Positions 1-63,486 of a stretch of 64,000 bases of DNA are shown in pieces. Under the pieces are notes generated by a model. It was not told the origin of the DNA. It ran no database searches and saw only the letters and a list, made by a program, of their open reading frames with translations. Each line of letters opens with the position of its first letter. Within the stretch, counting starts at the first letter, position 1. The stretch is from NCBI GenBank assembly GCA_016179745.1, contig JACPCP010000008.1:34103-98102 (forward strand), written 5' to 3'. The position numbers and the translations under genes were made by a program. Origin of the DNA: Candidatus Omnitrophota bacterium (GTDB lineage: Bacteria; Omnitrophota; Omnitrophia; Omnitrophales; JACQLI01).

Positions 1-1205
1 AACGTCGGGTGCAAAAGCTGGTCAAGCTGTTCCGCCTTGACCCGCAACAGCGCCTCGGAGGGCGAGATCAATTTTTCACGGACCAACTCAACGGCGGTTC
101 TCACGGCCGCCTGGGCCGTCCGTTTCCCGTTTCGAGTCTGAAGAAGAAAGAGCTTCCCTTCCTGAATCGTGAATTCCATGTCTTGCATGTCCCGATAGTG
201 GCGCTCAAGCCGCTCCCGGATTTTGCAAAGCTGCTTGTAAATTTCGGGCATCTTCGTCTTCAGCTGGTCCAGGGGTTCCGGGGTCCGGATGCCTGCCACG
301 ACGTCTTCCCCCTGGGCGTTGATCAAAAATTCCCCGTAAAATTTGTTCTCTCCCGTGGAGGGATTGCGGGTGAAACAAACCCCCGTGCCCGAGCTTTCAC
401 CCATATTGCCGAAGACCATGGCCTGCACGTTGACGGCCGTCCCGAGAAGCCCCCGGATGCTGTTCAGGTCACGGTATTTGAGGGCCCGGGGATTGTTCCA
501 GGAGTTGAAGACCGCGTCGATCGCCTTGACGAGCTGCTGGTAGGGGTCCTGCGGAAATTCCTCTCCGGTTTCCTCCTGATAGGCCTTCTTATATTGGCGG
601 ACAATGTCCTTCAAATCGTTGGCCTTCAATTCCGTGTCCTGCTTCACGTGGAGAAGTTCTTTTTTCTTCTCAAGAATATGCTCGAAGGTCTCGTGCTTGA
701 CGCCCATCACGACATTCCCGAACATCTGGATAAACCGGCGGTAGGCGTCCCAGGCGAAGCGCTCATTCTCGGTCTTCATGATGAGACCCTGGATGACGTC
801 GGAGTTGAGCCCTAAATTCAAGACGGTGTCCATCATGCCGGGCATGGAGACGGCGGCGCCGCTCCGGACAGAAACGAGCAAGGGATTATTCCGGTCGCCA
901 AAGCGCATTCCCATGGCCTCTTCCAGCCTCGCCAAGTGGGTCTTGATCTGGCCCTCCAAACCCTCTGGCCACTTTTGGCCCTGTTCGTAAAAAAGGGCGC
1001 AGGCCTCGGTCGTGAGGGTGAAACCTGCGGGAACAGGGATCCCGAGCCGGGTCATCTCCGCCAGGTTGGCCCCCTTGCCCCCCAACAGGTTCTTCATCCC
1101 GGCCTCTCCTTCGGCCGCATTTCGACCGAAGAAGTAAACAAATTTTTTAGTTTTTGACTGCCTCTGGGTTTTCTTTTTTGTTTTCATCGTTGCCACACCG
1201 GACAT
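1..1205 (-). CDS. ppdK: Pyruvate, phosphate dikinase, N-terminal ~400 aa (rest of gene lies beyond window start)
   Basis: The minus-strand frame is open to the window edge, so it is missing from the ORF track. My translation from ATG 1205 reads MSGVATMKTKKKTQRQSKTKKFVYFFG..GMKNLLGGKGANLAEMTRLGIPVPAGFTLTTEAC..NPLLVSVRSGAAVSMPGMMDTVLNLG..FTRNPSTGENKFYGEFLINAQGEDVVAGIRTP, a typical PPDK nucleotide-binding region. AAAGGAG lies 7 nt upstream of the ATG. Plus ORF 9..815 is its antisense shadow. Confidence 0.9.
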   Translation of the reverse strand, partial: MSGVATMKTKKKTQRQSKTKKFVYFFGRNAAEGEAGMKNLLGGKGANLAEMTRLGIPVPAGFTLTTEACALFYEQGQKWPEGLEGQIKTHLARLEEAMGMRFGDRNNPLLVSVRSGAAVSMPGMMDTVLNLGLNSDVIQGLIMKTENERFAWDAYRRFIQMFGNVVMGVKHETFEHILEKKKELLHVKQDTELKANDLKDIVRQYKKAYQEETGEEFPQDPYQQLVKAIDAVFNSWNNPRALKYRDLNSIRGLLGTAVNVQAMVFGNMGESSGTGVCFTRNPSTGENKFYGEFLINAQGEDVVAGIRTPEPLDQLKTKMPEIYKQLCKIRERLERHYRDMQDMEFTIQEGKLFLLQTRNGKRTAQAAVRTAVELVREKLISPSEALLRVKAEQLDQLLHPT

Positions 1206-12645: not shown

Positions 12646-12822
12646 TTAAAAGGCCCGGTCAAACGGGTGGCGGAAGGAGTAATGCGGATTCAATTCCATC
12701 AGTTGTGTGAGGAGCTTGAGACAGGCCACGGCCAGCTGCAACTGATGGGTCTTTTGCCAGGTGGAATAAAGCTGGAGGAGCCGGTCCTCCAAAGATCGGA
12801 ATTTACGGGCCCTTTGGGTCAC
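12646..12822 (-). CDS. Possible small helical protein (58 aa), hypothetical
   Basis: GTG at 12822 is preceded by AAGGGAG with 6-nt spacing, and overlaps the end of the upstream gene by 20 nt. Product: MTQRARKFRSLEDRLLQLYSTWQKTHQLQLAVACLKLLTQLMELNPHYSFRHPFDRAF. I recognise no family. This is the 3' part of track ORF 12646..13008. Confidence 0.3.
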   Translation of the reverse strand: MTQRARKFRSLEDRLLQLYSTWQKTHQLQLAVACLKLLTQLMELNPHYSFRHPFDRAF

Positions 12823-13573
12823 TGAAAACTCCCTTTCCGAACTGGGGATCAAACTGCCTGAGTTTCCCGAGTTCATCATGAATTCTCTGCTCCAGCTGAT
12901 GATCTTTGGTCCGGAGCCACGCCGCATAAAGATCGAGGAATCGGTCAATCCTCTCCTGCCGGGTCGTCTCCTGCTCATAGCGCCCGAACTCTTCCATGAA
13001 CTTGTCAAACGCCTGGTCCCGGAACCGGTTCAGAAAACTGAAGTAATCCCTTCGGACGGTCCGAAGGATATTCGTATAAAGATCAAAATTCCTGGAGAGC
13101 TTCTGGAGGACATCCCCGATGCCGGTTCTCTTCCGATAAATCCGGGCGTGATAATTGGCCGCCTGCTCGTAGTAAAGCCGGCCGAGTTCAGAAAAGTGCC
13201 TTTCAGAGCGCCGGAAAATCCCATGGCGGGCCTTGGCGGCGAGGTCCTCAAAAATAGCGAGGTGAACGAGAAGGTAGTCGGCATTCACCTTAAAAATAAA
13301 ATAGCGGATGGTTCGGTCCTCGGTCGCCTGCACCCAGCGCAGGACATCGCTCGAATCGGTGGAGAGATAGGGTTCGGCCAGTTCGTGATACTCGGGGAGC
13401 GCAATGGCAAAAAGCAGGTGCGACAGATAGACATTCACGTCCTCATCCTCCTGCTCTTCCGAAGGAGCCACCTCCAAATCCATCCGGGAGCGCACCAAAG
13501 ACCCGAGGAGATAACGGATCACCGTGTCTCTCTCCTGCTTGTCGATATCGAAGTAGAAGCAAGGTTCTTTCAT
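12803..13573 (-). CDS. Hypothetical all-helical protein (about 256 aa), no family recognised
   Basis: Long ORF with a non-shadow composition (MKEPCFYFDIDKQERDTVIRYLLGSLV...). ATG 13573 is preceded by GGAGAG at 5 nt. The track start at 13594 is a GTG. Confidence 0.75.
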   Translation of the reverse strand: MKEPCFYFDIDKQERDTVIRYLLGSLVRSRMDLEVAPSEEQEDEDVNVYLSHLLFAIALPEYHELAEPYLSTDSSDVLRWVQATEDRTIRYFIFKVNADYLLVHLAIFEDLAAKARHGIFRRSERHFSELGRLYYEQAANYHARIYRKRTGIGDVLQKLSRNFDLYTNILRTVRRDYFSFLNRFRDQAFDKFMEEFGRYEQETTRQERIDRFLDLYAAWLRTKDHQLEQRIHDELGKLRQFDPQFGKGVFSDPKGP

Positions 13574-13628
13574 TTTCTCTCCACCCCTTCTCACTTAAAT
13601 CTTTTTAAACGCCCTTAATTTAGGTGCC

Positions 13629-22031: not shown

Positions 22032-22078
22032 ATTATACCCGTCCCGTCCTTGAAATCAATCAGCAAGTCCAGTATAGT
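22032..22078. promoter_or_regulatory. Compact divergent promoter pair for rpsU (minus) and comF (plus)
   Basis: Plus strand: TTGAAA (22050..22055)-17 nt-TATAGT (22073..22078), with GTG 22087 only 8 nt later. Minus strand: TTGATT-16 nt-TATAAT (22037..22032), with the rpsU GTG (22022) 9 nt later. Confidence 0.55.
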
Positions 22079-22086
22079 AACGCCCC

Positions 22087-22797
22087 GTGAACTTCCACGA
22101 AACGCTCCCCCGTTACGGGGAGGCCTTGCTCAGACTCTTCTACCCCAGCCGGTGCGCCGCCTGCGAGAAGCTCCTGGAACTCGAAGAGCGGGGGATCTGT
22201 GCGGTTTGCCTCGAGGGGTTTCAAAAACTGAAATTCCTGCCCTCGGAGGAACGGATCCGGGTGCCGCTCACTCACGGAGAGGAGGCGTGGGCCCTTTTCC
22301 GTTACGAGGGATTGATCAAAGACCTTGTCCACCAGATTAAATTTGACCGCCGAAGGGACCTTCTCGAGATTTTCAGCGGGGCCTTGTCGCTTTTCCTGGA
22401 ACGCCGGCCGGGCCTCGGCCGTTACGACCTGATCCTCCCCGTCCCGCTCGACCCCCGCCGCCAATGGCAGCGGGAATTTAACCAATCCGCCCTTTTGGCC
22501 CAAAGGGTCCGGAAATGTCTGCTCTTGAGAGGCCGCGACCTCCCCGTAAAGGAACGGGGCCTCACGAAGAGGCGCTCCACCCCGCCCCAGAGCCTCCTCG
22601 GCCGGGAGGCCCGCAAGCTCAATCTCGACCAGACCTTCCGGGTTTCCTCCCGGGCCCGGGTCCGTTCGAAATCGATTCTCCTCGTCGACGACATCTTCAC
22701 GACCGGGGCCACGCTGGAAGAGGCGGCAAAAACCCTGAAGGCCCAGGGGGCGTCCCGGGTCGGCTGCCTCGCCCTGACCCGGGCCCTCCTTCACTGA
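22087..22797 (+). CDS. comF: ComF-family protein (phosphoribosyltransferase-like, ComFC)
   Basis: 236 aa. N-terminal zinc-ribbon Cys pairs (CAAC...CAVC) and the C-terminal PRTase motif ILLVDDIFTTGATLEEAAKTLKAQGASRV. Confidence 0.88.
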   Translation: MNFHETLPRYGEALLRLFYPSRCAACEKLLELEERGICAVCLEGFQKLKFLPSEERIRVPLTHGEEAWALFRYEGLIKDLVHQIKFDRRRDLLEIFSGALSLFLERRPGLGRYDLILPVPLDPRRQWQREFNQSALLAQRVRKCLLLRGRDLPVKERGLTKRRSTPPQSLLGREARKLNLDQTFRVSSRARVRSKSILLVDDIFTTGATLEEAAKTLKAQGASRVGCLALTRALLH

Positions 22798-22801
22798 TCC
22801 C

Positions 22802-23899
22802 ATGAGGGTCCTCGACCGTTACCTTCTCCGTGAACTTTTTTTTCCGGTCCTGCTCTGCTCGCTCATCTTGGTCTTTCTGGTCCTGATTGCGGATGTCTTT
22901 GACAACCTGGATGCGCTCCTGAAAAATCAAACGTCCCTCGCCCTGATCCTCCGCTATTATCTCCTGCTGATCCCGGTCTCCTTTTCACAGACCATCCCCT
23001 GGGCCACGCTCCTCGGGACGTTTTATCTCCTCGTAAGCTTCAATTTCCACAACGAAATCGTGGCCATGAAGGTGGCGGGGCTTGAGATCAACAGCATTGT
23101 CCGCCCGCTCCTTTTCTTCGGTTTTTTGATCGGCGTCCTCTGTCTCCTCCTGGGCGACACGGTCGTCCCGGCCACTTTCCACGCCGCCAGTGAAATCCGT
23201 GAAATTCACATTGAAAAGAAAAAGGGAGAGGGGGCGGGGCAGGTCGCCGAAAACGTCACCTACTACAGCGAGGGAAACCAGCTTCAATACTACCGCTATT
23301 TTGACTACGGGAAGAGGCGGGTGGAAGATGCCATCCTCCTCTGGCTCGACCCCCAGACCCGCAACACCCGGCGAAAGATGGTGGCTAAAAAAGGGGCGTG
23401 GCGGGAAAACCGCTGGGTCTTCGAAAACGTGACGGAATACGAGATGGACCCCGAGGGGCAAATTCTGGGGGAGCCGAGAAGTTTCGTGACCCGGGTCTAC
23501 GCCGACGTCCGGACCAGCCCCGAGGACCTGCGCCACGCCTCCAGCGAAAGCCAGTTCCTGAGCAGCAAGGAATTAAGGCACTATATCCAAAAGCTCGAAG
23601 AAAACGGTGTGCGGGCTTACAACGAAAAGGTGGAACACCAATACCGCATCGCCGCCCCCTGGCAGTCCCTTGTAATGATGCTGATTGCCTTTCCGCTTCT
23701 CTCCCCCACCCGTTCCAAAAAGGTGATCGCCTTTAACGTCCTGATTTGTCTGGGCGTGGTCTTCCTTTTTCACGTGACGGGGGCCATTACCCTGGCCCTC
23801 GGAAAAACCGGGAGGCTTCTCCCCTTTTTCAGCGCCTGGCTGAATACGATTTTATTTTCGGTGGCGGCGGTGTTTTATCTGGAGAGGGCGAACGAGTAG
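22802..23899 (+). CDS. LPS export ABC transporter permease, LptF/LptG family
   Basis: 365 aa. Starts MRVLDRYLLRELFFPVLLCSLILVFLVLI (YjgP/YjgQ family start), with a central periplasmic domain and three C-terminal TM helices. Confidence 0.88.
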   Translation: MRVLDRYLLRELFFPVLLCSLILVFLVLIADVFDNLDALLKNQTSLALILRYYLLLIPVSFSQTIPWATLLGTFYLLVSFNFHNEIVAMKVAGLEINSIVRPLLFFGFLIGVLCLLLGDTVVPATFHAASEIREIHIEKKKGEGAGQVAENVTYYSEGNQLQYYRYFDYGKRRVEDAILLWLDPQTRNTRRKMVAKKGAWRENRWVFENVTEYEMDPEGQILGEPRSFVTRVYADVRTSPEDLRHASSESQFLSSKELRHYIQKLEENGVRAYNEKVEHQYRIAAPWQSLVMMLIAFPLLSPTRSKKVIAFNVLICLGVVFLFHVTGAITLALGKTGRLLPFFSAWLNTILFSVAAVFYLERANE

Positions 23900-50879: not shown

Positions 50880-51770
50880 CTAAGCCCGGGGGTGCGCCCG
50901 GTGATAAGCCTCCTGAAGACGCCGTGTCGTCACGTGCGTATAAATTTGTGTCGTCGAAAGGTTCGCATGCCCGAGAAGTTCCTGGACGCTCCTCAGGTCT
51001 GCCCCCCGGTCCAGCATGTGGGTCGCAAAGGTGTGGCGCAGGGTGTGTGGTGAAATCCCCTTCTTTAAAGAAATCTGTCTCGCATACTTTAGAATCAGGC
51101 GCCGGACACTCCGGTCCGTCAGCCGGGTCCCGGACCGGTTCAGGAAAAGGGGGTGGCTCAATTCATCGGATTTCCGGCCGGCCGGGAGGGCCTCCAGGTA
51201 ATCCCGGAGGGACCCCAGCGCCTTTTCGCCGATGGGAACGATCCTTTCCTTTTTCCCCTTGCCCCGGATCTTCACAAGGCCGCTCAAAAGATCCAAGTCG
51301 CCCCGGTTGAGGCCCACGAGTTCGCTGACACGGACTCCGGAGCTGTAAAGCGTCTCCAGGATCGAACGGTCCCGCTTCCCCTCCCAATTTTTTCCGGAGG
51401 GGGCCTCCAGGAGATGGGTGATTTCGCCCAGATCGAGAAAGCGGGGCAGTTTCTTGTCCCGTTTCGGCGTGCTGATCCCCAGGACGGGGTTCGCCTGAAG
51501 CTGCTTTTCCCGGGCCAGGAACTTGAAAAAAGACCGGAGCGCCGCCAGCTTTCGGGAAAGGGTTGCCTTCGAACAGCCTCTCGATTTGACCTGCGTGAGA
51601 AAGCTTCGGATCAAGAGCGGATCGACTTCGCTCGTCTTTCTCGTGCCTAGAAACTGAAAAAATTCCCTGAGGTCGGCCCCGTAATTTTTGATCGTGTGGG
51701 GCGAAGCGCCCCGTCCTGCTTCCAAATACTCGAAAAATTGCCGGACCGACGGGTCCATCCTAGACTCCAT
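50880..51770 (-). CDS. xerC: Tyrosine recombinase XerC/XerD family
   Basis: 296 aa. N-terminal SAM-like domain, catalytic R...HTLRHTFATHML..GADLRSVQELLGHANLSTTQIYTHV with the Tyr. Assignment to XerC versus XerD is not secure. An alternative start is ATG 51758. Confidence 0.85.
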   Translation of the reverse strand: MESRMDPSVRQFFEYLEAGRGASPHTIKNYGADLREFFQFLGTRKTSEVDPLLIRSFLTQVKSRGCSKATLSRKLAALRSFFKFLAREKQLQANPVLGISTPKRDKKLPRFLDLGEITHLLEAPSGKNWEGKRDRSILETLYSSGVRVSELVGLNRGDLDLLSGLVKIRGKGKKERIVPIGEKALGSLRDYLEALPAGRKSDELSHPLFLNRSGTRLTDRSVRRLILKYARQISLKKGISPHTLRHTFATHMLDRGADLRSVQELLGHANLSTTQIYTHVTTRRLQEAYHRAHPRA

Positions 51771-54036
51771 TCGCCTCGGGGGGCTTCTCCTCCTCAGCCA
51801 CGGTCTCCTTGTCTCTCGGGAGCCGCCGGGTGACGTAAGTGCACTTGGGATAATTGGAACAGCCGTAAAAGGTCTGCCGGCGCTTTGACTTCCGTTTCAC
51901 CAGATCCCCGTTACAGCCGGGCTGGGGACACCGAAACCCCGTCGGCATGGATTTTGTGTAGCGGCAGGCCGGGAAACCCGAACAGGCCAAAAATTGCCCG
52001 AACCGCCCCCAACGGATGAGCATCTGTTTTCCGCAGAGGTCGCAGACCTCGTCCGTCGGAACGGCCTCCCGGCGGACACTCCGCATTTCGACTTTGGCAT
52101 CCGCCAAATACTTTGAGAAGGGTTCGTAGAAATCCTTGAGAACGGAATGCCATTCGAGCTCCCCCTCTTCAATCTTGTCGAGTTCCTCTTCCATTAAGGC
52201 CGTGAATTGATAATCCAGGATTTTGGGAAAATGTTTGACAAGGAGATCGACCACAATCTCCCCCAGCTCCGTGGGCACGAGGGCGCCTTTCCGCTCCACG
52301 TAGGAACGGTCGATCAGGACATAGATCGTGGGGGCATAGGTGCTGGGCCGTCCGATGCCCTTTTCCTCCAGTGTCCTGACGAGGCTGGCATCGTTGAAAC
52401 GGGCGGGCGGCTTCGTGAAGTGCTGGCTTGCCAGAAGCTCGTGCAGGCGAAGCGCCTCTCCTTCCGCAAGCGGCGGGAGCTCCTGGCTCTCCTCATCCTC
52501 CTCCGAAGATTCGTCCTCCTTCTCGGACTTTTCCGGAATCTCGAAAACAATTCCAAACCCCGGGAACAAATTCCGCCTCCCGCTCGCCCGGAAGAAATAA
52601 CGGTCCCCCGCCTGAATCGTGACGGAGGTCTGCTCGTCAATCGCCGGGACCATTTGGGAGGCGACAAACTTTCTCCAGATCAATTCATAAAGTTTGAATT
52701 CATCTTCATCGAGAAAGCCTTTGATTTTTTCGGGCAGTCTCAAAACGGAGCTGGGCCGGACGGCCTCGTGGGCCTCCTGCGCCCCCTTCTTGGATTTGTA
52801 GACCGGCGGGGCCTTGGGAAGAAACTTGGGTCCGTATTTTTCACCGATCCATTTCCGGGCCTCAGCCTGGGCCGACGGGGCGACATTGACCGAATCGGTC
52901 CTCATGTAGGTAATGAGACCCACGGCCTCGTCGGAGCCGAGCTCCACGCCTTCGTAAAGTTTCTGCGCAACCTTCATGGTCTTGGCGGCCGTGAAACCGA
53001 GACGGGTATAGGCCTCCTGCTGGAGACGGCTCGTGGTGTAGGGGGCCTGCGGCTTCCGGAGCCTTTCCTTTTTCTCGACCTTGAGGACCTGAAAGGGAAG
53101 TTTTTCGATCCGGGATTTGATTTCCTCGGCTTCTTTTTGATTGCCGATCTCGAGCTTCTTCTCGCCTTCCCGGTCGAGACGGGCGAGAAAAATCTTGGCG
53201 TCCTCACCGCCCTTTTCGGAAGAAAGCCGGGCCCGGATCTGCCAATACTCTTTGGGGACAAACTGGCGGATCTCCCGCTCCCTTTCGACAATCAGGCGAA
53301 GGGCCACGGACTGGACCCGGCCGGCGCTCAAGCCCTTCCCGACATTTTTCCAAAGAAGGGGGCTCAGCTCGTAGCCCACCAATCGGTCGAGGACCCGCCG
53401 GGCCTGCTGGGCATTGACCAGCTTGTCATCAATTTCACGGGGGTGTTTGAAGGCCTCCCGGACGGCGTCGGGAGTGATTTCGTTGAAAACGACCCGGTGG
53501 ATTTTTCCGTCGGTCTCGCCGTGAAGAATCGCCGCCAGGTGCCAGCTGATGGCCTCTCCCTCCCGGTCCGGGTCCGGGGCCAGGTAGACGGCCTTTTTCC
53601 CCTTGGCTTCCTTTTTGATCCGGGTCACGGTCTTTTTGGCTTTGGTCATGATGACATAGTCGGGTTTGAATTCGTGCTCAAGGTCAATCCCCATCCGTCC
53701 CTTGGGAAGGTCCCGGACATGGCCCATCGAGGCCTCAATCTGGTAGGCGGGCCCGAGGTAACGCAGGAGGGTCCTGGCCTTGGTGGGTGATTCCACAATC
53801 ACAAGGTTCTCCGCCCCTCCCTTGCCTCCCCCGACGAAATGAACCACCTCGATCTCATCTCCCTCTTCGACCGTGACCCGGTCAAATTCCTCCCGGGGAA
53901 TGACCTGGCGGTTCCGTTCGACCACGACGGAGCGGGGGTCCATCTGGAAGGATTGGAGGAGTCCGGTGACTGTGGTAAGCGGGTTGATCCGTCTTGCTTC
54001 GCCGTTCAACCGGAGCTGGATAAAGCCTGTTTTCAT
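51760..54036 (-). CDS. topA: DNA topoisomerase I with an in-frame N-terminal ThiS-like beta-grasp domain
   Basis: Toprim start LVIVESPTKARTLLRYLG, the type IA core (YMRTDS active-site Tyr region) and C-terminal zinc ribbons (CDLCG.., CPQPGC..). The frame stays open upstream through a ThiS-like segment to ATG 54036; the track start 54054 is a TTG. Confidence 0.93.
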   Translation of the reverse strand: MKTGFIQLRLNGEARRINPLTTVTGLLQSFQMDPRSVVVERNRQVIPREEFDRVTVEEGDEIEVVHFVGGGKGGAENLVIVESPTKARTLLRYLGPAYQIEASMGHVRDLPKGRMGIDLEHEFKPDYVIMTKAKKTVTRIKKEAKGKKAVYLAPDPDREGEAISWHLAAILHGETDGKIHRVVFNEITPDAVREAFKHPREIDDKLVNAQQARRVLDRLVGYELSPLLWKNVGKGLSAGRVQSVALRLIVEREREIRQFVPKEYWQIRARLSSEKGGEDAKIFLARLDREGEKKLEIGNQKEAEEIKSRIEKLPFQVLKVEKKERLRKPQAPYTTSRLQQEAYTRLGFTAAKTMKVAQKLYEGVELGSDEAVGLITYMRTDSVNVAPSAQAEARKWIGEKYGPKFLPKAPPVYKSKKGAQEAHEAVRPSSVLRLPEKIKGFLDEDEFKLYELIWRKFVASQMVPAIDEQTSVTIQAGDRYFFRASGRRNLFPGFGIVFEIPEKSEKEDESSEEDEESQELPPLAEGEALRLHELLASQHFTKPPARFNDASLVRTLEEKGIGRPSTYAPTIYVLIDRSYVERKGALVPTELGEIVVDLLVKHFPKILDYQFTALMEEELDKIEEGELEWHSVLKDFYEPFSKYLADAKVEMRSVRREAVPTDEVCDLCGKQMLIRWGRFGQFLACSGFPACRYTKSMPTGFRCPQPGCNGDLVKRKSKRRQTFYGCSNYPKCTYVTRRLPRDKETVAEEEKPPEANGV
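53824..54036 (-). other. ThiS/MoaD-type sulfur-carrier-like domain (71 aa, ends VGGG) forming the N-terminus of the topA ORF
   Basis: MKTGFIQLRLNGEARRINPLTTVTGLLQSFQMDPRSVVVERNRQVIPREEFDRVTVEEGDEIEVVHFVGGG has ThiS length and motif pattern. There is no stop codon before KGGAEN-LVIVESPTKA. Confidence 0.8.
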
Positions 54037-54126
54037 TCGGGGGATTCTATTCAAATAGTCGGAACATGTAAAGAAAAGTTTATCGGACGCACTAAGAATA
54101 GTCTTAACTTGTTTTAATTCTTTACC

Positions 54127-54489
54127 TTAAGAAATATCTTCCCAACGATCCTCCGATTTGGGCCTCGGAGAGTGGACTTTTTTGGCGGGGTGAGGGGGGA
54201 GTTTGTAGAGGCTTTCAAGCTGGTGGATCTGGGTGTCTTCGATGACTTCCTTCTCGATCTTCTTGATCATACGCTTCAAGACCCCGAGCCTGATCCCAAG
54301 CTTCTCCACGCAGAGGGCCGTCACCAGCCTCGTCAGGAGGTTCAGGTGGACTTCGACGTCTTGAAGCCGCTCCGAAGAATCCTGGGCACGCTCCCAGAGT
54401 TTGTCGACGTGCTTCTTCAGGTATTCGATCTCGTGTCCCTGAAAAAGATCGTCTGCTTGCTTCTCTTTCTTCCGAATCCGTTTTCTCAT
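54127..54489 (-). CDS. Hypothetical protein (120 aa), basic N-terminus and predicted coiled coil
   Basis: ORF bracketed by a strong upstream terminator and the AT-rich topA leader. Sequence MRKRIRKKEKQADDLFQGHEIEYLKKHVDKLWERAQ...; I recognise no family. Confidence 0.6.
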   Translation of the reverse strand: MRKRIRKKEKQADDLFQGHEIEYLKKHVDKLWERAQDSSERLQDVEVHLNLLTRLVTALCVEKLGIRLGVLKRMIKKIEKEVIEDTQIHQLESLYKLPPHPAKKVHSPRPKSEDRWEDIS

Positions 54490-58154: not shown

Positions 58155-60143
58155 CTAGAAGTGCCCCGCCAGTTGGGGGCCGACGGTCGAGTTGCCGTAA
58201 AGATAGGCCCCTTTTTTATTCCCATACCACACCACCTCCCGATACCACTCCTCCCAGGAGGTCCACGACTCCCGGCTGCGGTCAATGCGGTAACAATGCT
58301 TTTTTTCTTCCAGCGGGATTTTCACCCCCCGGAGCGCCGCCTGATAGACTTCGAAAAGGTTGTAAGAGACCTCGAGGTAGGTATCTTCCTCCTGGAAGGG
58401 ACGCTTGATCAGGGCCCGGTTCAACGCCGCCGACTCCTGAAGGATCTCCGGAGGAAGCGAGACCCCTTTCGATTCCAGGAGCTCGTGGAGCACTTGAACG
58501 GACTCCTCGTAAAAAGTGCCCAGTTTGTTTTCTGCGCAGAGCTTGATAAAAATATACTCGTCCGCCGGCCACCAGATATTCAGCCACTCGATCGAGCAGC
58601 AATATTCGGGGCCCCCTTTCTGAATGTCTTCGGCCTTCTCCAGAAAAAAGGTGCGGATCTCCGAAAGGACGGGAAAGCGCTCCGGCCCCCCCGCTGCGAA
58701 GGCCTCCAGCAATTCACGGTAGCTCAATGAACAGATTTCGTGGATCAGGACAAGGGGGATCTGCAGAAGTTTGTCGAAATGAAGCAGGCCCGTCATCCAC
58801 GAGAAGGCCCGGACCCGGCGCCAGTCCTCCGGAGGCATGGCCTGGGTCGCCACCACCAACTGCTGCGTCTCGTAGATCTCCCCCTCCGATTCCTCCAGGG
58901 AGCCGTGAATATTGACCACCTTGGTTTCGACGCTCTTCATCCCGTATTTTTTCTGGTATTCCGGGTCTCCCATTTCGGCGTTCGGGAGAATCGAGAGATT
59001 ATTGAATTGGATGCGGTTGTGCTGACCGTTTTCGATCACACGGGACACCCCGTCAACAAAGGAGTCGTAGGTCTCCCCGGGCAATGCCAGAATGAGGTCC
59101 GTGTAAGTCTCCACGTTGTCCCGGGTAAACCGCTGCTGCAGCTCCTGAAACGAGGCAGATGAAATATTGGCCCGCTTGACGCTCGTCAGCGTGTTGCGGT
59201 CGATGGATTGGAGCGAGATCGTGACCCCTTTATTCAACCCCGAATCGGCCAGGAGCTTTTGGACCTTGTAGGCACGCTCGGTCGCATTCTTCGTGTTCTG
59301 AACCGAAAGGGCACGGGGGTAGCCACGGCTTTTCTTGACGCCCGCCGCAAACTCGACAATCTCCAGGTCCCGGGGCAGGATGCCGAAATTTGCGTCGCAG
59401 CAAAAAATAAATTCTATCTTCCGCTCTGCGAACCACTCGATTTCTTGATACAACCTCTCCAGCTCAAACGTGAAGACCTTGCTCTGGACGGAGGACCCCC
59501 AGTCGCAGAAGGTGCAGGAGAAGGGGCAGCCCCGGTTCGTCTCCCACAGGATCAGCCATTGCTCCCGGGAATTAGCCTGCATCAAAGCGTCAAAGGTGCC
59601 GTCCAGGTAGGGGGAGGGAATCAGGGCGAGATCCCGGACCCTCTCCGCCTTCGGATGAGAGACGAAAGAACCGTCTTCTCTGAGGAAACTCACCGACGAG
59701 ACCTCTTCCCAGTTCCGTGAGGCCTGGTTCTCCAGGAGGGCTAGAAAAACCCGTTCCCCTTCGCCGTGACAGCACACATCAATGAAAGGGTTCTGCCTGA
59801 GGAAGTCTTCGCACCGGTCCGGGACCTGCGGCCCTCCAAAAATGATCAGGGTCTCGGGCCGGGCCTGCTTGAGGGCCTTCGCAATTTCAAGCGAGATCCG
59901 GATATTCCAAACGTAGGTGCTGAAACCGACGACCCTGGCACCCTGCAACTGCTCAACGGCCTGAGGGACCGTCAAACGGGAGTAAATGGGAAGCAGGAAT
60001 TCATATTGTTCCGGCGTCTTCGCATATTTTTCCACATAGGACTGGAGGAGACCTGCGGAATAGGGAAGGTAATTTTGGTTGGAGAAGCTGTTATTGATCT
60101 GCACCAAACCGACGCAGATCTTTTCGGGATCTCTTGGGGTCAT
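58155..60143 (-). CDS. B12-binding-domain radical SAM enzyme (class B type), function unknown
   Basis: 662 aa. N-terminal cobalamin-binding-like Rossmann region (VVGFSTYVWN...LIIFGGPQV), the radical SAM cluster motif NRGCPFSCTFCDWGS (CxxxCxxC), and a long C-terminal domain. Confidence 0.85.
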   Translation of the reverse strand: MTPRDPEKICVGLVQINNSFSNQNYLPYSAGLLQSYVEKYAKTPEQYEFLLPIYSRLTVPQAVEQLQGARVVGFSTYVWNIRISLEIAKALKQARPETLIIFGGPQVPDRCEDFLRQNPFIDVCCHGEGERVFLALLENQASRNWEEVSSVSFLREDGSFVSHPKAERVRDLALIPSPYLDGTFDALMQANSREQWLILWETNRGCPFSCTFCDWGSSVQSKVFTFELERLYQEIEWFAERKIEFIFCCDANFGILPRDLEIVEFAAGVKKSRGYPRALSVQNTKNATERAYKVQKLLADSGLNKGVTISLQSIDRNTLTSVKRANISSASFQELQQRFTRDNVETYTDLILALPGETYDSFVDGVSRVIENGQHNRIQFNNLSILPNAEMGDPEYQKKYGMKSVETKVVNIHGSLEESEGEIYETQQLVVATQAMPPEDWRRVRAFSWMTGLLHFDKLLQIPLVLIHEICSLSYRELLEAFAAGGPERFPVLSEIRTFFLEKAEDIQKGGPEYCCSIEWLNIWWPADEYIFIKLCAENKLGTFYEESVQVLHELLESKGVSLPPEILQESAALNRALIKRPFQEEDTYLEVSYNLFEVYQAALRGVKIPLEEKKHCYRIDRSRESWTSWEEWYREVVWYGNKKGAYLYGNSTVGPQLAGHF

Positions 60144-61553: not shown

Positions 61554-62594
61554 TCAAAAGGGCCCCTTGAATTTCCGCTCATGACTGTAAAAATCTTCCT
61601 TTGTAAGATCGATCGGGGGCAGCCCGAGTTTTTCTTCCGCCGTCCGGATGATTTCCTCGGCGTTGGGGTAGAACTCATTCTCGAGACAGCGGACGGTCGG
61701 GCAAGGTGTAGGGGCAAAGCCGATTCTCTTCACGGGGGATTTTAACCGGCCAAAACATTTTTCCGAGACCCGGGCCGCCACCTCGGCACTGAAACCGCAA
61801 TCGAGCCAGTCGTTATCGGCCACAATACAGTGTCCGGTCTTTTCGACCGACTGGATCACAAGACGATCGTCAAAGGGGGCAATGGTCCTGGGGTCGACGA
61901 TTTCCAGGCTGACCCCTCTTTTTTCCAAAACCTCGGCCGCCTTCAGGGCCTCCACATTCATCCAGGAAGTAGCGACCACCGTCAAATCGTTCCCCTGCCG
62001 CAAAATATTTCCTTCACCGAGAGGAATCGAAAATGGCTCCTCCGGAACTTCTTCCTCCGCCCAATACAGCCAGCGGTGTTCCAGAAAAAGAACCGGGTTC
62101 TCATCCCGAATCGCTGCGGTCAGAAGCCCTTTCGCATCCTTCGGGGTCGTGGGAAGAACCACTTTCAAGCCGGGAATATGGGCAAAGAGGGCATGAACAC
62201 TCTTGCTGTGTTGATAACCCTGTCCCCACCCCCGCCCCACAACGGCTCGAATCACGAGAGGCACCTTGACGTTCCCACCGTGGCTGTAACTATAGGTAGA
62301 GATCATATTCACCAACTGGTTCATAGCGAGCAGAAGAAAATCAATCCGGATATGAATATGAACGGGACGCATTCCATTGATGGCCGCCCCCAGGCCAAAA
62401 CCGGTCATGGCTTCTTCGCTAATGGGAGTGTCAAAGCACCGTTCGGGACCAAACCTCTCGGCCAGGCCGGCCACCGTGCCAAAAATCTTCGAATGGGCCG
62501 GCACCGTGACCCCATAAACAAAGACCTGGGGGTCCCGCTCCATCTCCTGCCACAGGGCCTCCCGGATCGCTTCGCCGAAATTAATGCGTCTCAT
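61554..62594 (-). CDS. TPP-dependent 2-oxoacid dehydrogenase/transketolase-like E1 component, beta subunit
   Basis: 346 aa. FDTPISEEAMTGFGLGAAINGMRPV, then the C-terminal transketolase-C-like domain (LEIVDPRTIAPFD). Confidence 0.85.
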   Translation of the reverse strand: MRRINFGEAIREALWQEMERDPQVFVYGVTVPAHSKIFGTVAGLAERFGPERCFDTPISEEAMTGFGLGAAINGMRPVHIHIRIDFLLLAMNQLVNMISTYSYSHGGNVKVPLVIRAVVGRGWGQGYQHSKSVHALFAHIPGLKVVLPTTPKDAKGLLTAAIRDENPVLFLEHRWLYWAEEEVPEEPFSIPLGEGNILRQGNDLTVVATSWMNVEALKAAEVLEKRGVSLEIVDPRTIAPFDDRLVIQSVEKTGHCIVADNDWLDCGFSAEVAARVSEKCFGRLKSPVKRIGFAPTPCPTVRCLENEFYPNAEEIIRTAEEKLGLPPIDLTKEDFYSHERKFKGPF

Positions 62595-63486
62595 AAAAAA
62601 CTCCCCGGTGTAAATCTTCGGATGGCGGGAAGGGTGCGGCCTGGGCGTTCCGGAGACTCTTTTCGAGATGGCGGTTGATTTTCTCCTCCTCCTCGGCGAG
62701 CTCCGCTTCGCTCCAGCCCTGACTCAAAAGCCTTTTTCGCTGCAGGGCAATCGTGTCCCGTTTGAACCATTCCTCGAACTCTTCCTTCGAACGGTAGCCG
62801 AGATCAAAGTCCTCTTGGATCCCAATGTGATCGAGATACCGGTAACACTTTAAATGAAGAAACGAGGGCCGCCCCTCAGACCCGATGGCCTCCACGGCCT
62901 GCCGGACCAGGCGGTAAAGGACTTCGACATCCGTTGAATCAGATTGGAAGGTGGAACATTCAAAGTTCCGCACAACCTCCGTAATGGACTTGAAGCCCTG
63001 CCGGACATCCTGTTTGGTATGAATCGCCAATCCGTTGTCTTCGCACACAAACAAAACCGGAAGCTTCATGACCGAAGCGGCGTTCAAACTTTCCCAAAAA
63101 ACACCCTCCTCCAGCGCACCGTCGCCAAAAAAGGCGCATGCGATGCGGCCATTCCCCTTCCTTTTATTTGCAAAGGCCGCCCCGACCGCCAACGGAATGG
63201 AGCTGGCCACCACGGCCGAGGTGCACAGGAGGCCCTTGTCGGGGGCGGCCAAATGCATCGAACCCGCCCTTCCCGAAGCAGAGCCCGTGACCAGGGCGTG
63301 ACACACCGCGGTGGCCGTGGCCTCCTGCCCCATCGACATGTGCATGGGAGTCTTCATCTGGTCTTCGGGATAATGCCGGATGATCAGGCGCTCGGCCTGC
63401 CGGATCAGGTATAACTTTCGATACAAATCAAGACCCGGCCTATTTTCTGTTTTGTTTTTCAAAGTCTCCGTAACTGATTTTTTCAC
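62581..63486 (-). CDS. TPP-dependent E1 component, alpha subunit (shortened: lacks the conserved segment between GQEA and GSMH)
   Basis: 301 aa. MSMGQEATATAVCHALV-TGSASGRAGSMHL...FFGDGALEEGVFWESLNAASVMKLPVLFVCEDNGLAIHT. Only 18 residues separate GQEA from GSMH, versus about 50 in canonical E1 alpha (compared from my memory of PDHA1). Confidence 0.75.
   Translation of the reverse strand: MKKSVTETLKNKTENRPGLDLYRKLYLIRQAERLIIRHYPEDQMKTPMHMSMGQEATATAVCHALVTGSASGRAGSMHLAAPDKGLLCTSAVVASSIPLAVGAAFANKRKGNGRIACAFFGDGALEEGVFWESLNAASVMKLPVLFVCEDNGLAIHTKQDVRQGFKSITEVVRNFECSTFQSDSTDVEVLYRLVRQAVEAIGSEGRPSFLHLKCYRYLDHIGIQEDFDLGYRSKEEFEEWFKRDTIALQRKRLLSQGWSEAELAEEEEKINRHLEKSLRNAQAAPFPPSEDLHRGVFYETH

Follow-up and report, generated by a model that had tools for sequence, protein, structure and literature searches.

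The ThiS/MoaD sulfur carriers are prokaryotic relatives of ubiquitin, and both adenylation and thiocarboxylation of ThiS require a free C-terminal Gly-Gly carboxylate. In the ubiquitin-ribosomal fusions Ub-eL40 and Ub-eS31, ubiquitin with its Gly-Gly lies N-terminal to an unrelated essential protein and is released by a Gly-Gly protease; in ubiquitin-like domain proteins that are not cleaved, no terminal Gly-Gly is required and it is seldom conserved. Among bacterial carriers, MoaX of Mycobacterium tuberculosis is cut between Gly82 and Ser83, its activity requiring that cleavage (PMC4326299), and MoaD-MoaE of Deinococcus radiodurans is cleaved by the JAMM protease DRJAMM (PMC8832034). Release by a JAB protease was predicted for fused ThiS/MoaD by Iyer, Burroughs and Aravind in 2006, and the known fusion partners, i.e. 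ThiG, ThiF, MoaE, sulfite reductase and AOR, all belong to sulfur metabolism (PMC1779556). The words 'Topoisomerase' and 'Toprim' are absent from that survey (PMC1779556), and no description of a TopA with an N-terminal ubiquitin-like domain was found in the searchable literature, in agreement with the initial annotation of this locus, which knew of no described ThiS-TopA architecture.

In the window, the 64-kb stretch of Omnitrophota DNA analysed here, a ThiS carrier is joined not to a sulfur-pathway enzyme, as in the fusions catalogued before (PMC1779556), but to an unrelated essential DNA enzyme, with ThiS residues 1-71, ending HFVGGG, followed by the six residues KGGAEN and then by a full bacterial TopA. 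An N-terminal ThiS/MoaD-family carrier and Gly-Gly at the junction, with a small residue next in MoaX, are shared with MoaX and MoaD-MoaE, whereas the partner there is MoaE, an enzyme of the carrier's own pathway, and cleavage here is predicted. The ThiS-ThiG, ThiS-ThiF and ThiS-sulfite reductase fusions resemble ThiS-TopA as fusions of neighbouring genes in which the Gly-Gly is retained, and three probable ThiS-ThiG fusions (P0147, P0164 and P0203) read ...HFVGGG-x-LVIAGHxFxSRL.VGTGKY, the ThiG part being assigned by motif only. The closest analogy in logic is provided by Ub-eL40 and Ub-eS31, although the arrangement is not homologous: those fusions are fixed whereas ThiS-TopA is labile (fused, separate or absent), and ThiS, unlike ubiquitin, is a sulfur carrier with no known protein-modifier role in these bacteria. 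The features of the locus are as follows.

51760..54036, minus strand: thiS::topA fused ORF, 758 aa, with ATG at 54036 and stop at 51760..51762
53824..54036, minus strand: ThiS module (MKTGF...EVVHFVGGG), residues 1-71, a complete beta-grasp sulfur-carrier domain by HMM, alignment, and AF2 with Foldseek
53824..53832, minus strand: codons G69-G70-G71, the carrier's C-terminal Gly-Gly(-Gly), now internal, with cleavage predicted after G71
53806..53823, minus strand: linker KGGAEN, residues 72-77, a remnant of the TopA N-terminus and intergenic overlap
53476..53805, minus strand: Toprim domain, residues 78-187 (PF01751, 69 bits), starting at the invariant LVIVESP
52135..53433, minus strand: type IA topoisomerase core, residues 202-634 (PF01131, 424 bits)
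51817..52050, minus strand: two C-terminal C4 zinc ribbons, approximately residues 663-740 (PF01396, two stretches, 83 bits)
54044..54072, minus strand: sigma-70-like promoter match TTTACA-17-TAGAAT, a consensus match only
54079..54090, minus strand: GCGTCCGATAAA, a motif conserved upstream and lying immediately 5' of the promoter-like match

There are no stops or changes of frame across the ThiS-like segment, the KGGAEN linker and LVIVESP, so the stop-free frame into TopA reported in the initial annotation is borne out by the read-through of the ORF and by independent assemblies. The ATG at 54036 is the start also chosen by NCBI, with a longer alternative starting at the first TTG (ORF 51760..54054, minus strand). 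The 758-residue protein is identical to P0268, i.e. NCBI MBI2166833.1, named 'type I DNA topoisomerase [Candidatus Omnitrophica bacterium]', and the in-frame junction is also present in the independent assemblies behind P0001 (97% identical, ENA) and P0269 (93%, Logan). A survey of topA orthologues recovered the same N-terminal extension in 82 of the 119 nearest TopA clusters, all of these fusions being from Omnitrophota, and the 69 loci matching the junction pattern comprised 40 fused and 29 separate forms. The thiS and topA genes lie only a few nucleotides apart in relatives, so that a single-base error could mimic a fusion, but the same junction in P0001, P0269 and P0268 comes from different sources, and dozens of diverged lineages are fused through different linkers. 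Given this recurrence across independent assemblies, loci and TopA clusters, a lost stop or frameshift in the contig is excluded and the chance of a sequencing or assembly artefact is negligible; the ThiS-TopA fusion is confirmed as real, with no assembly error. It is nevertheless unannotated, its database name being only 'type I DNA topoisomerase', and because dozens of entries so named hide a thiS, the scoring of thiS in pathway reconstructions misses the Omnitrophota fusions.

The N-terminal segment was assigned to the ThiS family far above the model cut-offs, with 47 bits against PF02597 in Pfam (cut-off 22.5) and 74 bits against the NCBIfam thiS equivalog TIGR01683 (cut-off 37.45), the latter covering model positions 3-64 of 64; eight divergent modules, both fused and free, scored 57-81 bits against the same model. 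Alignment to Bacillus subtilis ThiS (1TYG_B) ran end to end (E 4e-11), and the GGG is the true C-terminus of that protein, which closes EIVHFVGGG, the same ending as the fused module. An AlphaFold2 model of residues 1-100 (pLDDT 84.7) adopted a beta-grasp fold, and its six best PDB matches in Foldseek were all solved ThiS structures (target TM 0.71-0.90, rmsd 1.6-2.8 A). The module thus shares curated HMM family, fold and length with free ThiS (B. subtilis YjbS 1TYG; Escherichia coli 1ZUD and 1F0Z), and its closest free relatives are located in thiE-thiS-thiG operons. The difference from free ThiS is that the C-terminus is blocked in the primary product, with 687 residues following the GGG of the encoded polypeptide and hence no free carboxylate, and that the window contains no thiF, thiG, thiH or TPP riboswitch. 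HMMs, fold and recurrence all agree with what the initial annotation had read from motifs, i.e. a genuine ThiS-type beta-grasp module fused to TopA with its Gly-Gly buried at the junction.

The remainder of the protein matches TIGR01051 (topA_bact) over its full length, with 798 bits against a cut-off of 456, and is a complete, ordinary housekeeping topoisomerase I in the usual dprA ... topA-xerC surroundings. LVIVESP and DPDREGEAISWH are invariant in the TopA part, as are the zinc-ribbon cysteines 665, 668, 685, 691, 703, 708, 726 and 732; D155, D157, Y377, R379, T380 and D381 are invariant in 120 sequences, and E82 is conserved in at least 90%. The Toprim Glu, the DxD motif and the active-site Tyr have catalytic roles in type IA topoisomerases.

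In the separate forms, the thiS stop lies at -16 to +8 nt relative to the topA start (L081 having a 1-nt gap) and TopA opens MAKN-LVIVESP. The ancestral state is a free thiS with a stop overlapping or abutting the topA start. On the TopA trees, close relatives that share one syntenic locus may be fused, separate or thiS-less, the three states being interspersed, and the covalent link is therefore labile in evolution and looks close to neutral. Four close relatives with identical synteny (L076-L079) have no thiS at the locus, and TopA therefore does not need ThiS. The thiS-topA pair stays adjacent even in loci with other upstream genes, and this adjacency may point to a functional link. Taken as a comparison of loci, the fusion is best described as a phylum-wide, recurrent state of a conserved, translationally coupled thiS-topA pair that arose several times.

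The junction pattern first applied demanded FVGGG with a spacer of 9-24 nt and missed fusions with long linkers, and the conservation of GGG among the loci selected by it is circular because the pattern demanded FVGGG. An exhaustive HMMER search and a full-length homologue search were used to correct this bias. In the resulting sample of full-length homologues, unselected on the junction, the GG was retained in 82/82 fusions, unlike in non-cleaved ubiquitin-like proteins; among 59 diverse fusions G70 and G71 were invariant and G69 nearly so. The linkers beside it are hypervariable and low in complexity, ending G-P/A-K/R-N, and span 5-76 residues in the unbiased set and 4-7 codons in the pattern-selected loci. 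GGG is followed directly by A, S or K in 69/82 fusions and by Pro in only one, yet Pro makes up 13.5% of linker residues, and in the full-length model the pLDDT falls below 50 at residues 68-72, such that the junction is predicted to be disordered. The peptides that span the junction of the fused protein are ...VVHFVGGGK and GGAENLVIVESPTK. Further, 17 of the 29 free relatives, together with L081, carry 1-7 extra residues beyond GGG, so that C-terminal trimming would already be needed in this lineage.

Outside the junction, the ThiS module of the fusions is under purifying selection, with a dN/dS of about 0.17-0.18 in fused clades versus 0.14 for free ThiS, and per-column conservation in fused and free forms is correlated at 0.70. 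Residues N11, G12, E40, N42, E63, G70 and G71 are invariant across fusions that are only 37-84% identical to the N-terminal 100 residues of the window's protein. The ratio of ThiS to Toprim divergence is 2.7-3.0 in fused clades and 1.3 in the largest separate clade, and this faster divergence could reflect relaxed or altered constraint, although the contrast is tempered by the second separate clade, which stands at 2.2.

A probable, if far from certain, explanation for these observations is that ThiS-TopA is a precursor, formed by loss of the stop within the overlapping gene pair, from which a Gly-Gly-directed cut after GGG frees both ThiS and TopA, the sulfur acceptor being something other than ThiG. 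Under such a scheme, the position of thiS directly upstream of topA, with its stop overlapping or abutting the topA start, would provide translational coupling, and small changes in the stop/start overlap would repeatedly have deleted the stop and merged the frames. One polypeptide would then be translated, in which an entire ThiS beta-grasp module is followed by a flexible tail of GGG plus linker and by TopA. Cutting after GGG would be the work of a Gly-Gly-directed endopeptidase, with a JAMM/MPN+ protease of the Mec/DRJAMM type the most plausible candidate, and would give ThiS the C-terminal carboxylate for adenylation by a presumed ThiF/MoeB-type E1 and subsequent thiocarboxylation, and the same cut would release a normal TopA. 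For ThiS to work, cleavage behind its Gly-Gly is most likely necessary, and the kept Gly-Gly would make sense only if the carrier is cut free. Of the three options raised in the initial annotation, release by proteolysis after GGG has the strongest support, by inference: the GG never varies beside a linker that is hypervariable, the module is under purifying selection, small residues are favoured directly after GGG, free relatives carry 1-7 residues beyond it, and MoaX and DRJAMM offer precedents.

The second option, a permanent N-terminal beta-grasp domain with an accessory or regulatory role on TopA and no sulfur chemistry, e.g. one that mediates interactions as a ubiquitin-like module or caps the Lys-rich DNA-binding tail, is considered rather unlikely. 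It would account for an adjacency kept across much of the phylum, even with different upstream genes, and the combination of fused and adjacent forms fits the 'Rosetta stone' logic for interacting proteins, with translational coupling giving 1:1 synthesis; the faster evolution of ThiS relative to TopA in fused clades and the lack of ThiG in most Omnitrophota are also consistent with it. Reverse gyrase likewise has a large module ahead of its type IA Toprim domain, which illustrates that this domain tolerates N-terminal additions. However, a non-carrier would have no requirement for the Gly-Gly found in every fusion beside so variable a linker, the module retains a ThiS score at equivalog level, and relatives of the same synteny have a separate thiS or, as in L076-L079, none. 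The range of linker lengths and the low-confidence junction also argue against a fixed docking geometry, and a rigidly docked ThiS domain is rejected on these grounds. Improbable, too, is that neutral loss of a stop codon has left a functionless ThiS carried in frame ahead of an essential gene, its job being done by another thiS or no longer needed. A change of 1-2 nt in the stop/start overlap would suffice for such a fusion, thiS has been lost outright from the locus in several lineages, and relative divergence is higher in fused clades, but a passenger of this kind would be expected to degenerate or be lost, as happened in the thiS-less lineages, whereas dN/dS is well below 1 (about 0.18), the seven invariant ThiS residues persist across diverged fusions, and deep, independent fused clades keep thiS HMM scores of 57-81 bits.

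Dual expression, the third option of the initial annotation, would have TopA made also or mainly from an internal start near the linker, at the GTG at 53802, with the fusion protein a minor product. The GGN GGN GGN codons with GGAG resemble a Shine-Dalgarno sequence 6 nt before that GTG, and where relatives have two separate genes, these Gly codons immediately precede the genuine topA start. The GTG is, however, codon V79 within LVIVESP, which begins at 53805, so that initiation there would leave a single residue ahead of the catalytic IVESP strand, and no start codon is conserved at L78/V79 since the codons vary within the window's own clade (CTT GTG, TTG GTT, CTT GTC, CTT GTC, CTC GTG and CTA GTC). 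Met occurs in just 1/82 linkers, a sigma-70-like consensus scan found no promoter-like site inside the ThiS segment, and the ThiS C-terminus would stay blocked in any case; dual expression is accordingly held to be very improbable.

No thiF, thiG, thiH, moeB or JAMM gene is present among the ORFs of at least 150 aa in the 64-kb window, as the initial annotation had stated, and its observation that there is no TPP-riboswitch-like leader agrees with a search of the window and of seven loci against Rfam, in which no family, the TPP riboswitch included, gave a match. Approximately 0.6 Mb of related Omnitrophota loci likewise held neither thiF nor thiG; there, tblastn and a scan for the HxH...SxxD motif gave nothing credible for thiG, thiE or JAMM, and no candidate gene for the cleaving protease was found in the window or in these loci. 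A ThiG homologue search, with its query operon from Gemmatimonadota, returned no Omnitrophota ThiG among the best 120 matches. Genes close to the ends of the window, looked up in order to lengthen its 122.5-kb contig, matched only short contigs from read assemblies. The KEGG orthologues K21029 and K21140 are presumed here to be the MoeB-type E1 and the Mec JAMM, respectively. In the KO table of Seymour et al., the examined part of which covers about three genomes, one Omnitrophota genome has thiS, topA, K21029 and K21140 and lacks thiF, thiG and thiH, the JAMM and E1 evidence thus coming from that single genome. The same study gives more than 75% of Omnitrophota as making thiamine, a figure that is unusable for ThiS because the module as scored is limited to thiC and thiD-type kinases. 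Of 176 complete Omnitrophota genomes, no more than 38 have thiG (bioRxiv 10.64898/2026.06.07.730766), and since most of the phylum is without ThiG, the acceptor is probably a different enzyme. The leading candidate would be a Thi4-type thiazole synthase: the gene for one Omnitrophica Thi4 is clustered with thiS and thiF, and in E. coli this enzyme requires ThiF/ThiS (PMC13325395).

If cleavage does occur, ThiS-TopA would be a natural bacterial parallel to the ubiquitin-fusion precursor genes, a GG-specific processing protease would be predicted in Omnitrophota, and ThiS would be working without ThiG, probably with Thi4. A broader and distinctly speculative reading, to which only a small likelihood is attached, is that a ubiquitin-fold Gly-Gly protein is made in the eukaryotic manner as a fusion to an essential housekeeping protein, and that its release by a GG-protease is also regulatory. 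Uncut ThiS, together with the acidic part of the linker, might then mask the Lys-rich DNA-binding tail of TopA, coupling the supply of sulfur carrier, or sulfur/thiamin status, to supercoiling, or the freed ThiS might act as a protein modifier in the manner of SAMP and TtuB.

Upstream of the fused ORF, the promoter-like site matches the consensus at 10 of 12 positions (one site found versus 0.2 expected) and stops 8 nt short of the ATG, leaving almost no leader. Exact copies of GCGTCCGATAAA precede the thiS or topA start in fused (L057 and L059), separate (L080) and thiS-less (L076-L078) loci alike.

The topA frame of the window is a single minus-strand ORF running from 54054 (first TTG) or 54036 (ATG, giving 758 aa) to a stop at 51760, and the following Pfam domains were annotated along thiS::topA:

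Residues 9-71, minus strand: ThiS
Residues 78-187, minus strand: Toprim
Residues 202-634, minus strand: type IA topoisomerase core
Residues about 663-740, minus strand: two C4 zinc ribbons

The first 77 residues matched the NCBIfam thiS equivalog TIGR01683 at 74 bits (cut-off 37.45) and the remainder matched topA_bact TIGR01051 at 798 bits (cut-off 456). ThiS from the B. subtilis ThiS-ThiG complex (1TYG_B) aligned with the N-terminal module end to end (E 4e-11), its real C-terminus falling exactly at the module's HFVGGG. AlphaFold2 modelled residues 1-100 with a pLDDT of 84.7, with six solved ThiS structures as the best PDB matches (target TM 0.71-0.90), and in the full-length model the ThiS module formed a block of pLDDT 78-92, residues 68-72 (GGGK) fell below 50 and Toprim strand 1 lay at 77-81. 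Given the domain matches, the 1TYG_B alignment and the predicted structures, the in-frame ThiS-TopA fusion described in the initial annotation is therefore correct in every detail, the proposed HMM search and structure prediction of the N-terminal segment both having returned ThiS.

In NCBI the identical 758-aa protein (MBI2166833.1, on a 122.5-kb Omnitrophica contig) carries no name beyond 'type I DNA topoisomerase'. The same junction was present in independent assemblies (P0001 and P0269, proteins of 97% and 93% identity), which makes an artefact of sequencing or assembly a practically negligible explanation. A degenerate junction DNA pattern (FVGGG, 9-24 nt, LVIVESP, about 240 nt, WH) matched 21 species-representative genomes and 47 metagenome contigs, the genomes all being Omnitrophota MAGs or Planctomycetia/Planctomycetales-labelled bins with the same locus. 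As FVGGG was built into this pattern, a second sample that was not junction-selected was taken, comprising the 119 nearest full-length TopA clusters at 90% identity. In this survey of topA orthologues, which the initial annotation had suggested, 82 of the 119 clusters were ThiS-TopA fusions of 757-840 aa, and further fusions were recovered by an exhaustive HMMER search. ThiS-TopA is a real, widespread and unannotated architecture. Several bins carrying the Omnitrophota-type locus are labelled 'uncultured Planctomycetia'. At L064 (contig OBEQ011933681.1; P0003), L046 and L043, the topA frame stops not far past the junction (163, 29 and 152 codons), probably because these metagenome contigs contain frameshift errors or pseudogenes. 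The species-representative bin CAYJSE01 (ERP125453_co1_305) holds two different fused thiS::topA genes (L004 and L007) from different sub-clades on separate contigs, suggesting a mixed bin rather than duplication.

Across eight divergent modules, drawn from short-linker clades, long-linker lineages, an AGG variant and free forms, the curated thiS model scored 57-81 bits in every case, and the nearest free relatives outside the set were found in thiE-thiS-thiG operons of Gemmatimonadota. Seven residues (N11, G12, E40, N42, E63, G70 and G71) were invariant over 59 diverse fusions. Estimates of dN/dS, which are rough because synonymous sites are near saturation, put the module at about 0.17-0.18 in the two larger fused clades, free ThiS of the largest separate clade at 0.14 and Toprim at 0.07-0.09. 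With Toprim as the yardstick, divergence of the module was faster by a factor of 2.7-3.0 in fused clades and of 1.3 and 2.2 in the two separate clades, so that some relaxation in the fused clades is possible.

Gly-Gly was retained in 82/82 fusions (GGG in 80, AGG and AGGG in one each) and was followed directly by a hypervariable, low-complexity linker of 5-76 residues, with an acidic or Pro-rich half first, a Lys-rich half second and a G-P/A-K/R-N end preceding LVIVESP. The residue immediately after GGG was Ala, Ser or Lys in 69 of the 82 linkers and Pro in one, compared with 13.5% Pro among linker residues. Free relatives carried 1-7 residues beyond GGG in 17/29 cases, as did the separate thiS of L081; in a carrier that has to expose a Gly-Gly carboxylate, these residues would need trimming. 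A Lys-rich N-terminal tail (MAKAKKSVKAVK...GPKN) of 15-30 residues precedes Toprim in many Omnitrophota TopAs, as seen in the A2 alignment, the thiS-less loci L076-L079 and L081. The basic half of long ThiS-TopA linkers is this same tail, also present in unfused TopAs of the same radiation, and it may bind DNA.

Among 69 pattern-found junctions, 40 were in-frame fusions and 29 were two genes, the thiS stop lying -16 to +8 nt relative to the topA start. In one overlap, GGA TGATGGCT, one frame reads ...GG* and the other MAKNLVIVESP, an arrangement with the sequence hallmarks of classic translational coupling. Gene order was strongly conserved, running from aro and ilv/leu genes through dprA, the gene of an RDD protein and a small ORF to thiS and topA and on to xerC, kdtA and lpxK; one MAG whose upstream genes differ still has thiS 27 nt ahead of topA. 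Fused forms made up at least three clades in the TopA tree of short-linker loci, and fused, separate (L080, L081) and thiS-less (L076-L079) forms were interspersed in the larger set, no thiS remnant being found at L076-L079 by tblastn. Given this interspersion, the covalent link has been repeatedly made, broken and lost at one same locus. The small ORF in the window (54127..54489, minus strand, 120 aa, without a Pfam family), between the RDD gene and thiS::topA, is a conserved gene, since homologues (cluster 15 and unannotated genes of 128-143 aa in L076-L081) share its position in many loci. Putative genes without a Pfam match at E <= 1e-5 lie at 12803..13594 (minus strand, 263 aa) and 22060..22803 (minus strand, 247 aa).

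Upstream of thiS::topA, the sole sigma-70-like match (10/12 positions) ends 8 nt ahead of the ThiS ATG, leaving essentially no leader; with the ATG this close to the -10 element, translation may begin on a leaderless mRNA. At 54044..54090 (minus strand) lies a conserved motif made up of GCGTCCGATAAA and then TTTACA-N17-TAnAAT. It recurs ahead of the start of thiS or topA in L057, L059, L076-L078 and L080, whether the locus is fused, separate or thiS-less; thiS-less loci have a 110-130 nt leader after it. The window and seven loci gave no match to any Rfam family, including the TPP riboswitch, in agreement with the initial annotation. Its suggestion of dual expression, with TopA also made from an internal start, did not hold up: codons 78/79 vary among the window's closest relatives, Met occurs in only 1/82 linkers and no conserved internal start was found, making this reading very unlikely. 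TopA of the fused lineages is thus predicted to be made with ThiS attached.

On indirect but mutually consistent evidence, we somewhat favour a precursor model, in which ThiS would be synthesised at the N-terminus of TopA, cut free behind GGG and used to carry sulfur, probably to an acceptor that is not ThiG. The module stays a textbook ThiS under purifying selection, Gly-Gly persists in every fusion within otherwise free-drifting disordered sequence, small residues are favoured right after it, and free ThiS of relatives already needs trimming; the easy interconversion of fused, separate and absent forms would be expected if the link is irrelevant given a processing activity, and precedents are experimentally established. 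The main rival, a permanent ubiquitin-like domain on TopA, is consistent with the strikingly conserved thiS-topA adjacency, but retention of Gly-Gly, linkers of 5-76 residues and TopAs of close relatives without ThiS argue against it and leave it rather improbable. That the ThiS part is a functionless passenger is considered more doubtful still.

Such a precursor would resemble known fusions. MoaX, a fused MoaD-MoaE, is active only after cleavage at Gly82|Ser83 (PMC4326299), and Deinococcus MoaD-MoaE is cut by a JAMM protease (PMC8832034). Iyer et al. described ThiS/MoaD fused to ThiG, ThiF, MoaE, sulfite reductase and AOR, with release by JAB proposed, and their survey makes no mention of a topoisomerase partner (PMC1779556). 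ThiS-TopA belongs to the same class, but its partner lies outside sulfur metabolism; its logic is like that of eukaryotic ubiquitin-fusion genes. In P0147, P0164 and P0203, ThiS apparently runs on in one continuous frame into the N-terminus of ThiG, the ThiG part being assigned by motif alone (...HFVGGG-x-LVIAGHxFxSRL.VGTGKY). At least one of these proteins, from a Sphingomonadales MAG, is named only 'sulfur carrier protein ThiS, partial' in NCBI.

For sulfur-carrier partners in Omnitrophota, K21029 was taken to be a MoeB-type E1, K21140 the Mec JAMM and K22699 a Thi4-type synthase. Within the portion of the KO counts of Seymour et al. considered here (PMC10066038, supplementary file 6, 'KO counts per genome'), a single Omnitrophota genome (231) has thiS, moaD, topA, thiC, thiE and these three KOs and lists none for thiF, thiG, thiH or moaE, and genome 58 has thiC, thiH and thiE and lists none for thiS, thiG or topA; the 'thiamine' module of that study comprises only thiC and a thiD-type kinase. 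Nearly all of 176 complete Omnitrophota genomes have thiE, thiC, thiL and iscS, but only 38 have thiG (bioRxiv 10.64898/2026.06.07.730766). In prokaryotic genomes that lack thiG, genes for the thiazole synthase Thi4 occur in clusters with thiS and thiF, and complementation of E. coli thiG by an Omnitrophica Thi4 was better with host ThiF and ThiS present (PMC13325395). In the window, a sugar-modification cluster includes a B12-binding radical SAM gene (58155..60143) and, at 61554..63486 (minus strand), thiamine-diphosphate-dependent E1-type subunits (E1_dh, Transket_pyr/Transketolase_C), indicating that the organism needs TPP.
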